Made by a program: the position numbers and the translations under genes. The notes under the pieces are model-generated. The model was not told the DNA's origin. It worked only from the letters and a program-made list of their open reading frames with translations, and searched no databases. Below are positions 36,910 through 64,000 of a stretch of DNA of 64,000 bases, one piece after another. Every line of letters begins with the position of its first letter. Position 1 is the stretch's first letter. Source of the stretch: Pseudomonadota bacterium (GTDB lineage: Archaea; Thermoplasmatota; SW-10-69-26; JACQPN01; JAJPHT01); the NCBI GenBank assembly GCA_021325135.1, contig JAJPHT010000014.1, forward strand, positions 42,111 to 106,110. The letters are read 5' to 3'.

Positions 36910-38181
36910 ATGAAGACGCGCCTCGTCGCCGTGGCGATCCTCGCCACCCTCGTCGTCGCGGGCGTCGGCGCCAGCGCGACGCTCTACGTGGCCGCGGGCA
37001 CCCCGGAGCAGGTCGTGGAGGGCCACACCGTCTTCGCCGTCATCTCCAACGTGGGCTCCAACACCACGACGGCCGCGCAGTTCGGCGCCGCCGTCGCCGT
37101 GCTGGTGCGCGACATCGAGACCTCGGGCACCGTCACCCGCTTCCCGGGCGTCCTCTGGTTCAACGACCAGTACCTCGTGAAGCCCTCCGCCGGGGCGCCC
37201 CCGTCAGATTCGGAGCGCGGCCCCTGCACGGGCGCCGTCCTCGCCGTGAACGCCGGGGACAGCGACCCCCGCCTCGACTTCCAGGCCGCCACGCCCGCCT
37301 ACGTCGAGTCCTACCAGGTCACGGACCCCAACGACCACTCGTGGGTCGTCGACAAGTGGTCCAGCGGCGGCGCCACGCCCCACCCCATCTGGGTCGTCGG
37401 CGTGGCCAACACGCAGTCCGGCGGCACCGTCTCCGCCGGCATCGCGACGCCCGACGACGGCACGAGCAACTGCTCCCCCTACTCGGACAACCCCTGCGGC
37501 GGCCCCGACGTCCTGCCCGTCGTGGAGGACGGCAAGACCCCGGTCTACAACGACTCGGGCTCCGCCGAGAGCCGCTCCCGCTGCTTCCTGCGCCCCAACT
37601 CGCCCACGGCAGCCCCCGACGTGAGCAGCCACAAGACCACGGGCGACAACGGCTACGGCTACCCCTGCGGCGGCAAGGACAGCGAGACGCCCCCCGCCTC
37701 GTGCGGGGCCCTGCGCTACAACGCGCTGCTGTTCTTCTTCCTGGACGACCTCACCCAGGCCGGCACGCCCAAGGACCACACCAAGGGCAGCGCCGACTGG
37801 AGCGGCGACGCGAGCGGCTGCCAGTCGCCCACCACCGACCAGGAGCGCCGCAACTCCGGCGTGGAAGGCTACCCCTGCCCCGGCGGCGACGACAACCGCG
37901 AGGGCAACAGCCACCCCTACAACCCCGGCAACGCCTACCCGCTCACCACCTACGACGGGCGGGGCAACCACGGCGGCAGCGCCGACTGCACGGGCGACGG
38001 CGTGAACGACGCGAACTGCCACGCCACGCGCAACGTGGACATCTACTACGGCACGGCGGCCAACCCCGCGAGCCGGACCTTCCGGTTCCGCGACGTGGAG
38101 GGCAGCACCGCGCCGTACTACTGCGAGCCGGGCACGGTGCGCTGCAACCAGGACGACCTGCCCGTCGCGGTGTCACCGTAG
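36910..38181 (+). CDS. secreted Cys/Asp/Gly-rich protein
   Basis: GGAGG SD, signal peptide, about a dozen Cys, no C-terminal anchor. Confidence 0.8.
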   Translation: MKTRLVAVAILATLVVAGVGASATLYVAAGTPEQVVEGHTVFAVISNVGSNTTTAAQFGAAVAVLVRDIETSGTVTRFPGVLWFNDQYLVKPSAGAPPSDSERGPCTGAVLAVNAGDSDPRLDFQAATPAYVESYQVTDPNDHSWVVDKWSSGGATPHPIWVVGVANTQSGGTVSAGIATPDDGTSNCSPYSDNPCGGPDVLPVVEDGKTPVYNDSGSAESRSRCFLRPNSPTAAPDVSSHKTTGDNGYGYPCGGKDSETPPASCGALRYNALLFFFLDDLTQAGTPKDHTKGSADWSGDASGCQSPTTDQERRNSGVEGYPCPGGDDNREGNSHPYNPGNAYPLTTYDGRGNHGGSADCTGDGVNDANCHATRNVDIYYGTAANPASRTFRFRDVEGSTAPYYCEPGTVRCNQDDLPVAVSP

Positions 38182-38212
38182 GGACGCCCGCGGGCGTCCC
38201 GAACCCCTTTTT
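38181..38212 (+). terminator. palindrome plus T-tract terminator
   Basis: Perfect 20-bp palindrome GGGACGCCCGCGGGCGTCCC at the stop, then TTTTT. Confidence 0.55.
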
Positions 38213-38235
38213 CACAGTCTTCCTCCACAAAACGT
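38211..38235 (+). promoter_or_regulatory. TTCACA-N3-TTCCTCC motif
   Basis: TTCACAgtcTTCCTCCACAAAACGT upstream of the 38273 gene. Confidence 0.7.
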
Positions 38236-38272
38236 TCCTTCACCTCGGGGTCTGCGGGCTTCGGGAGCGTCT

Positions 38273-38704
38273 GTGCGAGTCCTTGCGATCCTGGCGTGCG
38301 CCCTCCTGTTGCCGACGGTGGGCGCCCACGGACCCGGTTGCGGGGACAGCCGCGTCCACGTCTACGTCTCCACCCCGCTGGTGGCCAGCCGCGGCGTCGA
38401 CGCCTTCGCCGCCCCGGGCTGCCCCTCAGGCTCCGACCCGGCCTACGGCACGGGTGGAGCCTTCCTCCCCGCGGCCCACCACGGGGACCTCATCTGCGTC
38501 GCGGACAGCGTGGTCGCCCACGTGAGCTTCTCCATCGGGCGCGACCTGGACGGGGACGGCGTCATCTCGCCGGGCTCCGGCGACCAGGTCGCGGGCCCCT
38601 TCGACGCCACCTCCTGCGCCAAGGCCCCCTGGGAGGCCGGGGTGGACGGCGGATGGTGGATCATTCTCGGGTCCGAGGCGACCCAAGGGACCATTTCCGC
38701 CTAG
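38273..38704 (+). CDS. small secreted protein (GxGGAF/DxDGDG family)
   Basis: Signal peptide, VHVY, GTGGAF and DLDGDGVISP. Confidence 0.72.
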   Translation: MRVLAILACALLLPTVGAHGPGCGDSRVHVYVSTPLVASRGVDAFAAPGCPSGSDPAYGTGGAFLPAAHHGDLICVADSVVAHVSFSIGRDLDGDGVISPGSGDQVAGPFDATSCAKAPWEAGVDGGWWIILGSEATQGTISA

Positions 38705-38726
38705 GACCCTCCTAGACCACAAGCAT

Positions 38727-38742
38727 TTCACAATTTTCCTCC
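38727..38742 (+). promoter_or_regulatory. TTCACA-N3-TTCCTCC motif
   Basis: TTCACAattTTCCTCC upstream of the first giant ORF. Confidence 0.7.
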
Positions 38743-38777
38743 GATAACTTCAACCCCCGACAAACGGCATCGTTCGC

Positions 38778-61799: not shown

Positions 61800-62405
61800 A
61801 TGAAAACCCCCATGTTCGTCATGCTCGCCGCCGTCGCCATGATCGCGACCCCCCTCGCGAACGCCGGCACCGCCGCGCACCCCCACACCCACACCTTCGT
61901 CGGCGTGTCCGCCCAGGACGCGCAGATCCACGTCGACTCCAACGGCATCGCGTTCGACTCCGCCGTGGACACCGCCGTCGTCGGCCTCTGCGCCGACGTC
62001 ACGCCCGTCCTCTCCGCCATCACGCCCCCCACCGTCTTCCGCGACGGCGACACCGAGACGGGCATCGGCGGCGGCTGCTTCGCCTTCACCACCGTGTACG
62101 GCAGCGACGCCGGCACGACCGTGACCGTCTTCGGCCAGGACATCGTCGGCAGCATCAACACCGTCTACGTCGCGTGCGTCGACGTCAACGGCGACGGCCT
62201 CTGCACGCCCGACCTCGGCGGCGACCAGTACAACCTCTGCGAGAACGGCGTGTCGCTGACCCACGGCGGCAGCTGCCAGGTCTACGAGGACCCCGCGGCC
62301 GCCAACCCGTACGTCTACGTCCTCGTCCTCGCGGGCGTGACCGTGGACGCCAGCGGCGTGACCCCCACCGCGGCGGTCGCCGGCTTCCTCTTCCTGAGCA
62401 ACTAA
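61800..62405 (+). CDS. small secreted protein (GxGGxxF/DxNGDG family)
   Basis: GGAGG SD, signal peptide, HTF, DGDTETGIGGGCF and CVDVNGDGLCTP. Confidence 0.8.
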   Translation: MKTPMFVMLAAVAMIATPLANAGTAAHPHTHTFVGVSAQDAQIHVDSNGIAFDSAVDTAVVGLCADVTPVLSAITPPTVFRDGDTETGIGGGCFAFTTVYGSDAGTTVTVFGQDIVGSINTVYVACVDVNGDGLCTPDLGGDQYNLCENGVSLTHGGSCQVYEDPAAANPYVYVLVLAGVTVDASGVTPTAAVAGFLFLSN

Positions 62406-62569
62406 GCCGGTCTCGGGGTGGGGCCAACAAGGTTCCACCCCAATCCCGATATTGTTTTTCTAGAGAATTGTTGTGAGTTTCAGTTCCCCATCTCCCGTCT
62501 GGAGAAACGTTGATGGGAACTCGCCCGGATGCGCGGGGGCGGCCCGAAAGGGTCGTTTGGAGGCTATCC

Positions 62570-63214
62570 ATGTTCCGCGCCAACCGCTTCATCGTGCTCG
62601 CTCTCCTCCTCGTGCTCCCCTCGGCGCTCGCCGGCTCTGCCGCGAGCCCTGAGGTCCGCGACGCCTCTGGCGACGCGGCCGGCCCCCTCGACGTCGTGAG
62701 CGCCTGGGTCACCAACGACGGGAACTCCGTCGTCTTCCACGTCAAGGTCACGGACCTCTCCCAGCCCAGCCCCATCCTCGGCAGCAGCGGCGACCGCTAC
62801 TACTACCGCCTCGACTTCGGCCTGAGCACCTCCGCGGACCACTGGTACGCCGAGGGCCAGATCCAGAACGTCGACACCAGCAGCACGGCGGGCGTCAGCG
62901 GCACGGGCGCCCACGGCCCCATGGGCGTCTTCGTCGGCACGGGCTTCGCCGGTGGCAGCGTCCAGACCCAGGCCGCCACCATCGGCGGCTCCACCACCGT
63001 GGACCCCGCCAGCGGCGTGGTTTCCGTGTCCGTGACCCGCGACGCCCGCATCCCGCTGACCTCCGGCGCCATCGTCACCGGCCTCAAGGTCACCACGTAC
63101 TCGGGCTCCACCCCCTACGAGAGCCAGTTCGGCTCCCAGATCACGTCCGTCACCGGCGGCGACCGCACGGTGGCCGACACCACGGCCTCCGGCCTGAACT
63201 ACGTCGTCTCCTGA
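62570..63214 (+). CDS. secreted beta-rich protein
   Basis: GGAGG SD, signal peptide, EVRDASGD...LDVVSAW. Confidence 0.78.
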   Translation: MFRANRFIVLALLLVLPSALAGSAASPEVRDASGDAAGPLDVVSAWVTNDGNSVVFHVKVTDLSQPSPILGSSGDRYYYRLDFGLSTSADHWYAEGQIQNVDTSSTAGVSGTGAHGPMGVFVGTGFAGGSVQTQAATIGGSTTVDPASGVVSVSVTRDARIPLTSGAIVTGLKVTTYSGSTPYESQFGSQITSVTGGDRTVADTTASGLNYVVS

Positions 63215-63313
63215 GCAAGTCCCGCGGGGCGATTGCCCCGCTTTCTTCTCTCTCCTTTTCACAATCTTTCTCGCCTCACGTTCCGTGCAACCTCCCTCCT
63301 GCACAGGAGGAGC

Positions 63314-63338
63314 TTCACAAAGTTCCTCCACAAAACGT
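63314..63338 (+). promoter_or_regulatory. TTCACA-N3-TTCCTCC motif
   Basis: TTCACAaagTTCCTCCACAAAACGT; a weaker copy lies at 63258-63273. Confidence 0.7.
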
Positions 63339-63415
63339 GTGCATACCTCACGCATTGGGGCCCTGCCCCGATCGGGTGGCAACGCTCGATGGGAGGCAAA
63401 AACAGAGGCATTACC

Positions 63416-64000
63416 ATGAACAAGACTTCGATCCTCCTCGGCGCGCTCCTCGCCGTCGCGATGGCCCACGTCGCCGTCGTCAACGCGAACAGCGTCTGCC
63501 CCGGCGCGAACCAGCCCGTCCACACGTACGGTCTCCCCGGCTCCGTCGGCGCGAACTCGAACACGCTCTCTGAGCAGACCGGCAGCAGCCCCGTGGGCTC
63601 CATCGGCGGCGCCAGCGCTGGCCTGACCACGGTCCAGGACACGAACACGGCCGACTGCAACGGCGACGGCCAGCCCGGCGACTTCGACGGCGACCTCGAC
63701 GTCGGCGTCGGCGGCGCCTTCTTCGGCTCGTCCACCGCGTGGGACGACGCCTTCGGCTGCGGCTACGACCTGAACGTCCACGCGACCAGCGGCACGGCGA
63801 CCGACGTCACCGGCCTGCCCGTCAGCGGCAGCTACGGCGTCGACGATGTGGCGGGCCCCGTCGTCGTGACGGACCCCACCACCGGCGCGACCGTCTCGTG
63901 CCAGACCGACGGCGGCATCACGCCCGACACGGACGGCAACGACTGCCTCAACGCCTGGGTCAACACCTGGTCCGCTGGCGCCTGCGCCAGCACCGGCGGC
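63416..64000 (+). CDS. secreted protein of the same family (partial)
   Basis: Manual translation MNKTSILLGALLAVAMAHVAVVNA...VHTY...DCNGDG...DGDLDVGVGGAFF...TDGGITP. Confidence 0.8.
   Translation, partial: MNKTSILLGALLAVAMAHVAVVNANSVCPGANQPVHTYGLPGSVGANSNTLSEQTGSSPVGSIGGASAGLTTVQDTNTADCNGDGQPGDFDGDLDVGVGGAFFGSSTAWDDAFGCGYDLNVHATSGTATDVTGLPVSGSYGVDDVAGPVVVTDPTTGATVSCQTDGGITPDTDGNDCLNAWVNTWSAGACASTGG

Follow-up and report, generated by a model that had tools for sequence, protein, structure and literature searches.

A triad of predicted giant surface proteins belongs to a MoxR/DUF58/DUF4350/DUF4129 super-operon in an order of Thermoplasmata archaea

We analysed a 64,000-nucleotide stretch of an archaeal genome (GenBank assembly GCA_021325135.1, contig JAJPHT010000014.1, positions 42,111 to 106,110 of the forward strand; GTDB lineage Archaea; Thermoplasmatota; SW-10-69-26; JACQPN01; JAJPHT01), hereafter the window, which carries a triad of giant surface-protein genes (G1, G2 and G3) flanked by genes for small secreted proteins (A to E). 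The window is the final 64 kb of contig C6 of this genome (3.77 Mb in 51 contigs), and its end is the end of the contig. It has a G+C content of 70–77%; most long open reading frames are spurious at so high a G+C content, hence genes were called by codon statistics. Scans of the window for tRNA genes and Rfam families were both empty, and an archaeal class I CCA-adding enzyme is encoded within it. In what follows, C-numbers are contigs of the source genome, G001, G002, G007, G009, G010, G011 and G017 are compared genomes, L024 is a contig in the European Nucleotide Archive (ENA) from another assembly of the locus, and L027 and L034 are further contigs compared. From position 36910 to the end of the window lie eight genes, all on the forward strand and all predicted to be exported:

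A, 36910–38181, + strand: secreted protein of 423 residues with 12 Cys; contains a WFNDQ motif
B, 38273–38704, + strand: secreted protein of 143 residues with 5 Cys; a short predicted member of the B/C/E superfamily described below
G1, 38778–48446, + strand: giant of 3222 residues
G2, 48443–57901, + strand: giant of 3152 residues
G3, about 57898–61731, + strand: giant of about 1277 residues
C, 61800–62405, + strand: secreted protein of 201 residues with 6 Cys
D, 62570–63214, + strand: secreted protein of 214 residues with 0 Cys
E, 63416 to past the window end, + strand: secreted protein with 6 Cys, 228 residues in full (seen in L024)

A hydrophobic, Sec-type signal-like segment opens all eight products, in agreement with a first-pass annotation of the same DNA, which had described every gene as lying on one strand and bearing a signal peptide. 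Its description of the unanchored small proteins as Cys-rich holds for A, B, C and E but not for D.

The three giants are built from long extracellular-type regions that end in similar tails. G1 consists of a signal peptide, an Ala-rich N-terminal region, repeats of the form hh-D-x-G-G-D-D-x-Y, a C-terminal half of fn3- and immunoglobulin (Ig)-like domains, and a tail in which APGL is followed by a single transmembrane (TM) helix and RRNRR; its TTG start codon at 38778 is an uncertain call. G2 has a signal peptide, MAM or choice-of-anchor-J-like domains, CARDB and NPCBM_assoc Ig-like domains, and an APDL-TM-RRRGR tail. In G3, NPCBM_assoc Ig-like domains and an APGV-TM-RRR tail follow an N-terminal domain (residues about 20–560) that is diagnostic of the system; relatives throughout the order have this domain, as do three genomes of a sister family. 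The tripartite arrangement of proline motif, TM helix and Arg cluster that had been noted on all three giants was thus seen again. N-glycosylation sequons are 2.2–2.8 times as frequent as expected in G1–G3 (28 versus 12.5 in G1, 45 versus 16 in G2), and B, C and D have none. Searches of PDB sequences with G1, G2 and G3 returned nothing significant, with a single Ig-like match for G1.

The giants had also been described as coupled from stop to start. G1 and G2 do overlap by ATGA (48443–48446), but the second junction needed correction. It reads ATAG, with ATA at 57898–57900 and the G2 stop codon TAG at 57899–57901. In two orthologous contigs a GTG start overlaps the G2 stop at this junction (GTGA in one of them). 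Of the alternative G3 starts, CTG at 57874 gives a full signal peptide, and the canonical GTG at 57916 and ATG at 57928 leave it truncated; the gene caller behind the ENA record chose ATG 57928, and the signal peptide was lost. Because canonical starts 15–27 nucleotides downstream would remove the signal peptide, G3 probably starts at the near-cognate ATA (or at CTG 57874) by termination-reinitiation. We considered an assembly error at this junction and rejected it, as the independent ENA assembly (L024) has the same ATAG, although the two assemblies possibly derive from the same sample.

We next compared the tails with those of other proteins of the genome. All reading frames were scanned for a C-terminal TM helix followed by an R/K cluster and then filtered by motif pattern. 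Forty-six proteins fit: directly before the helix, 6 of them carry PGF and the other 40 carry P-x-P-G/E or PG. The tails of the giants appear from their sequences to be this genome's general sorting-type signal and not specific to the triad. A second tail class, (I/V)P(F/V)FP (PFFP or PVFP) followed by a TM helix and RRR, was observed on five proteins on contigs C23, C33, C34, C39 and C48. Three exosortase/archaeosortase-family genes are present in the genome, and all three pass the general exo_archaeo signature TIGR04178 only. One lies in the window:

Exosortase/archaeosortase-family gene, 8868–9725, + strand: candidate processing enzyme for the tails

It scores nearer the bacterial EpsH/XrtA models than any archaeosortase subtype, and the genes around it (7680–11332) code for small proteins of secreted and membrane type, among them a Cys-rich one of 205 residues at 10715–11332. 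The second sortase gene, C39:65118–65858, has one of the (I/V)P(F/V)FP-tailed proteins directly upstream. With the tripartite tails and three sortase-family genes, the exosortase/archaeosortase-substrate architecture that had been recognised at the outset stands; by sequence the tails are built like sortase substrates, while curated tests do not assign them to the PGF-CTERM/ArtA family. The haloarchaeal PGF-CTERM/archaeosortase A system (TIGR04126/TIGR04125) is alike in having a Pro-Gly/TM/Arg signal on many proteins together with genomic sortase-family genes. It differs in its motif, since P-x-P-G/E or PG predominates here and PGF is rare, and the tails and sortases here fall below the curated cut-offs. 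Archaeosortase substrates were reportedly found to be lipid-anchored in a haloarchaeal study.

The window stops where the contig breaks off, and so the first-pass annotation saw only half of the system. A blastn match of 99.99% identity and a 530-kb ENA contig show that C6 continues into contig C19. There, positions 5305–17694 encode a homologue of a further giant, hereafter H (2039 residues), followed by DUF4350, MoxR, DUF58, a TM protein and a CARDB protein. The start of this module is 5.3 kb past the window end and its MoxR gene about 12.3 kb into C19, so that the reported absence of an ATPase is true inside the window but not of the adjoining contig. Between E and the module lie a 100-residue gene and a gene for a 495-residue TPR protein (other strand), a small fn3-like gene, a helix-turn-helix (HTH) regulator and a tailed protein of 491 residues; in all, about 9 kb of small-gene DNA separates the triad from the ATPase half. 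Secreted, fn3-like-looking proteins of 134–142 residues were also observed beside ArsR/TrmB-type HTH regulators at L024:14736–15149 and L027:5494–6447, and this pairing recurs downstream of C/D genes in several contigs.

The genome contains two further triads of coupled giants, on C14 and C27, and here the module adjoins the triad directly. On C14, the third giant is followed by a 2304-residue protein ending in DUF4129, then by DUF4350, a MoxR AAA_3 ATPase, DUF58, a small polytopic membrane protein and a CARDB protein that bears the same tail type as the giants; the genes from the giants to the module are joined by overlapping stop and start codons. On C27, the triad is followed by a DUF4129 protein of 1871 residues, DUF4350 and DUF58, with MoxR slightly further downstream, and stop/start overlaps again run from the triad into the DUF4129 giant, DUF4350 and DUF58. 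The three paralogous triads are strongly diverged (25–29% identity in local matches). AAA_3 scored 208–210 bits and DUF58 60–70 bits on C14, C19 and C27, and both are also present in relatives. The DUF4350 copies of C14 and C27 scored 56.3 and 40.7 bits, above the cut-off of 30.4, which the copy on C19, beside the window, did not reach (25.2 bits, E = 2.2e-5). The tail of the C19 H aligns with the C14 and C27 copies, both of which match DUF4129. Hydropathy profiles give H an ectodomain of about 1870 residues, one TM helix and a tail of about 125 residues, DUF4350 a TM helix at each end, DUF58 an N-terminal TM hairpin, and MoxR no membrane segment (soluble). In H, sequons are four times as frequent as expected, and in the CARDB protein five times. 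A complex prediction with the cytoplasmic tail of H, MoxR and DUF58 scored 0.55, and a control with DUF58 replaced scored 0.63; we used this result neither for nor against an interaction.

The order of triad and module is colinear in G001 (same genus), and this colinearity is largely kept in G010 and G011, which belong to other families of the order, and in G017, from a different family of the class. Triad and module are linked within a few kb but rearranged in G002, G007 (two loci) and G009. Each of the 14 other genomes searched within the order gave a G3-like match, as did three of six genomes of the sister family; in the rest of the phylum, matches to G3 are confined to the generic Ig-like region. 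The super-operon spans the order and beyond. Since the module follows the triad directly in two paralogous loci and four relatives, we take the locus in the window to be the surface-protein half of this super-operon, and the CARDB, NPCBM_assoc and fn3 domains of G1–G3 and of the downstream CARDB protein place Ig-like surface proteins beside the module. The first-pass annotation had proposed a check of synteny across relatives; the genes form a co-conserved surface-protein system.

The same annotation had called the system undescribed, and this does not hold, because the triad belongs to a MoxR/DUF58/DUF4350/DUF4129 super-operon of a kind predicted in 2015 (PMC5898192). In that work, Makarova, Galperin and Koonin described neighbourhoods in which arCOG01314 (DUF4350) is accompanied by a MoxR/GvpN ATPase, a vWA protein and Ig-like proteins predicted to belong to the S-layer, and proposed that they encode a novel secretion or membrane-remodelling complex of archaea (PMC5898192). 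The system described here has in common with theirs a DUF4350 protein (defined by a signal peptide and a C-terminal TM helix in theirs, with TM helices at both ends here), the MoxR and DUF58 pair, and Ig-like surface proteins, with the ATPase half on the adjoining contig. It differs in that three giants of 1.3–4.2 thousand residues with sortase-type tails precede the module, in that the DUF4129-type protein has an ectodomain of about 1900 residues, in that one subtype adds small six-Cys proteins of predicted jelly-roll-like fold, and in that the window's surface half lies apart from its ATPase half. The triad-MoxR system is a giant variant of the arCOG01314/MoxR/vWA kind; in our literature searches, no paper describing the giant triad as such came up. 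From Actinobacteria, two related types of MoxR-DUF58 cluster are known, PFNA and Esr, whose surface proteins are of FN3 or Ig-filament type (PMC8430577; PMC13622651). The actinobacterial DUF4129-DUF4350-MoxR-DUF58, PFNA and Esr clusters are alike in placing a MoxR and DUF58/vWA pair beside a long FN3- or Ig-repeat protein. In contrast to these clusters, the neighbours scanned here include no transglutaminase, Ser/Thr kinase or FHA genes, the envelope is archaeal, and anchoring would be through a PGF-like tail and not through a transglutaminase. Type IV pilus and archaellum families (PilB/FlaI, PilC/TadC, class III signals) were absent by Pfam and NCBIfam from the eight proteins and from the module genes, to which the search was confined, and with none of the eight matching a pilus or archaellum family, the initial statement that this is not a type IV pilus locus is upheld.

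Next, we turned to the small secreted proteins, which the first-pass annotation had regarded as paralogues. This is so for B, C and E, which are distant paralogues, but A and D show no relation to them. Against an 82-sequence alignment of E, hhalign gave 97.6% (E = 2.8e-12) for B and 95.7% (E = 8.6e-9) for the C family, and the E-family profile retrieves 95 clusters at 50% identity. These profile comparisons unite B, C and E in a single new superfamily of secreted six-Cys proteins, whose fold is predicted to be jelly-roll-like. The C family is small (7 clusters among 5.8 billion proteins) and is marked by six conserved Cys, a CVD-x-x-GDG-x-C motif and, on the N-terminal side, an A-x-P-x-x-H motif. 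The latter, often AHPHTH, is invariant in the C family and stands just past the predicted signal cleavage site; at the matching position the E family keeps H-x-Y. A-x-P-x-x-H and H-x-Y may form a metal site at the mature N-terminus.

The five small genes differ in their association with the giants. C follows G3 in seven genomes or contigs from two families of the order (in G002 it lies two genes on, on the other strand), and D comes after C in five loci. Matches to the C profile occurred in only four of the 15 genomes of the order, those with an orthologous triad; on sequence grounds, C is thus assigned as a triad-subtype-specific branch of the superfamily. A second C-like copy, with three in-frame stops, was observed between H and the intact C at G009:C16:58207–58569 (L034) and is apparently a pseudogene. 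An orthologue of B lies upstream of G1 in G002. Orthologues of A were found after G3 in G002 (57% identity) and near the system in G007, in positions that differ from that in the window; A has paralogues on C13, C49 and C3 (3–4 copies in the genome) and no match in Pfam, NCBIfam or PDB. Fifteen E copies were found in the genome, and the 14 others sit among ordinary genes, away from the giants. In the paralogous triads of C14 and C27, small secreted genes are missing from the stretch between G3 and H.

An AlphaFold2 model of E (predicted local distance difference test score, pLDDT, 86; predicted template-modelling score 0.79) is nearly all beta, and the fold is predicted to be a compact jelly-roll-like sandwich without a clear relative. 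A Foldseek search and two VIA-align runs with this model returned generic jelly-roll rows only, with a best Z of 4.8 (viral capsid and protease jelly rolls); fibre subunits, lectins and metal-binding proteins were not prominent in these searches (Ena2A, Foldseek E = 0.5), and CorA of Methylomicrobium, at Z 4.5, is within noise. The fold search for fibre relatives that the first-pass annotation had proposed therefore gave no significant match to any fibre subunit. The model has no long terminal extension of the donor-strand type. PDB sequence searches with the C and E profiles yielded no match at E ≤ 0.1, and the beta-trefoil lectin rows for E (E = 0.1–0.6) are noise. The AlphaFold2 model of C, made from a 10-sequence alignment, has a mean pLDDT of 35.7. 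TasA, Ena and cannula subunits have the same general fold class, that of a jelly-roll-like beta-sandwich. The likeness of the small proteins to TasA or archaeal bundling pili, cannulae and Ena fibres, namely a small secreted beta-sandwich without an adjacent ATPase gene, is one of fold class only; by contrast with those fibres, there was no significant structure or sequence match, and no donor-strand extension is evident in the E model.

Several of these genes were said to have a promoter motif in common. The sequence CACA-N3-TTCCTCC (14 nucleotides) has four matches in the window, versus 0.05 expected by chance:

Motif, 38213–38226, + strand: upstream of B
Motif, 38729–38742, + strand: upstream of G1
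Motif, 61738–61751, + strand: upstream of C
Motif, 63316–63329, + strand: upstream of E

It lies 49–100 nucleotides upstream of these four genes but is missing from the regions upstream of A and D, so the claim is retained for B, G1, C and E only. Genome-wide, with a looser 3' pattern added, we found only 15 matches, of which some ten are good motif copies; among the good copies, two precede E paralogues and one precedes another small six-Cys secreted protein.

We propose, with a probability of roughly 0.6, that the giants are the outer half of a conserved MoxR-linked envelope system that forms a coat or adhesive layer whose assembly or remodelling is driven from the cytoplasm. G1–G3 would be exported by the Sec pathway to the cell surface, probably be N-glycosylated, and be held at the membrane through the genome's general Pro-Gly/TM/Arg C-terminal signal, which an enzyme of the exosortase/archaeosortase family probably processes. 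The full super-operon would run in the order G1, G2, G3, H, DUF4350, MoxR AAA+ ATPase, DUF58 (vWA-like), small polytopic membrane protein and CARDB surface protein, with H as a predicted giant type-I membrane protein whose DUF4129-type tail is cytoplasmic. The giants, H and the CARDB protein may together form a glycoprotein coat or adhesive layer. MoxR and DUF58 would drive the assembly or remodelling of this coat from the cytoplasm, acting through the membrane-spanning H, DUF4350 and small TM protein. As for C, usually accompanied by D, and probably also B, these may be subtype-specific soluble accessory proteins that bind the coat or its targets; we picture them as compact and disulfide-bonded, with Asp/Gly-rich loops of calcium-binding look. 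E and A are probably dispersed secreted families and not specific to the system.

Several observations weigh against parts of this proposal. In the window copy, the two halves are not one transcript, since divergently transcribed genes lie between them. The C19 homologue of H had no DUF4129 match at E ≤ 0.001. The role of the MoxR module is itself a prediction in every organism, and gene adjacency is the sole ground for the roles suggested for C, D and B. As to the anchoring step, the three sortase-family genes scored 19–35 bits with the ArtA model (TIGR04125) against a cut-off of 75, and all three giant tails fell short of every curated CTERM cut-off, with a best score of 10.2 bits versus 24.5 for PGF_CTERM (TIGR04126). 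We also considered the sortase at 8868–9725 as the dedicated enzyme of the locus; because its orthologues sit on contigs other than the triad's in G002 and G007, a fixed link between sortase and triad was rejected.

The first-pass annotation had instead favoured an undescribed archaeal filament system, in which the small secreted B, C, D and E would polymerise into a fibre or matrix on the tethered giants. The co-conservation of C and D with the triad, the paralogy of B, C and E, the rare promoter motif common to these three and the G1 operon, and the jelly-roll-like beta-sandwich of the E model with its conserved Cys and Asp/Gly-rich loops all speak for such an arrangement. Nevertheless, we consider it very unlikely, since no fibre subunit rises above noise among the structural matches of E, whose model also shows no donor-strand-type terminal extension, D and A come from families of their own, none of the 14 other E copies examined stands beside giants, and the C14 and C27 triads do without small genes between G3 and H, which means that the giants do not need the small proteins. 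A more elaborate form, in which the C/D pair with B and E would be calcium- and disulfide-stabilised jelly-roll subunits building a lattice or fibre on the giants, with deployment powered by MoxR and DUF58, seems to us just as improbable; if true, it would amount to new archaeal surface-structure machinery and would supply the first concrete substrate for the orphan MoxR-DUF58-DUF4350-DUF4129 module.

The absence of small genes from C14 and C27 would also be expected if A to E were passengers from expanding secreted families that settled between the super-operon halves without a functional tie to the giants, and the copy numbers of E and A in the genome fit that picture as well. Moreover, since the motif also marks E paralogues elsewhere, it may have travelled with gene duplicates. 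However, the rarity of the C family, its occurrence only with the orthologous triad and beside G3 in two families of the order, and the succession of C and D in five loci make this explanation doubtful as a whole. A surface sensing or conflict system, with the giants as diversifying sensors that signal through MoxR and DUF58 as in MoxR-vWA ternary systems and Esr, is similarly unlikely. The Esr system, as described in a preprint, has a transglutaminase and an Ig-filament sensor together with MoxR and vWA (PMC13622651), and here too a MoxR and vWA-like pair adjoins long Ig-repeat surface proteins, the three paralogous copies are strongly diverged, and HTH regulators adjoin the locus. Yet a Pfam scan of the neighbouring genes found no kinase, phosphatase, FHA or effector domains, the eight proteins gave no sign of a beta-propeller head with Pfam or NCBIfam, and near-universal presence in the order with about 10,000 glycoprotein residues per copy fits a structural role better. 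We therefore prefer the MoxR-linked coat or adhesive layer to each of these alternatives.

Two further features of the window, outside the triad locus, were noted. On the reverse strand, 11339–13456 is an open reading frame of 705 residues that joins a membrane PAP2 phosphatase domain (residues 97–258) to a complete archaeal CCA-adding enzyme (286–681); to our knowledge, a PAP2–CCA-adding enzyme fusion is not a recognised arrangement. The region is also rich in predicted lipoproteins, as five proteins bear lipobox-like signals (LSAGC, LAPGC, LAGC, AAGC): 14960–16354, 25422–26894 (reverse strand), 26992–28419, 29104–30558 and 32507–33670. Among the five are an LVIVD-repeat protein and two BNR/sialidase-like proteins.

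Many archaea and Actinobacteria carry the MoxR-DUF58-DUF4350-DUF4129 module, for which no function is known. Within this order of Thermoplasmata, it is tied to about 10,000 residues of predicted anchored glycoprotein, in up to three copies per genome. The giants are the best candidates for clients of the module and are possibly the main envelope of the lineage, and the C branch may offer a small, expressible handle for work on binding and assembly.

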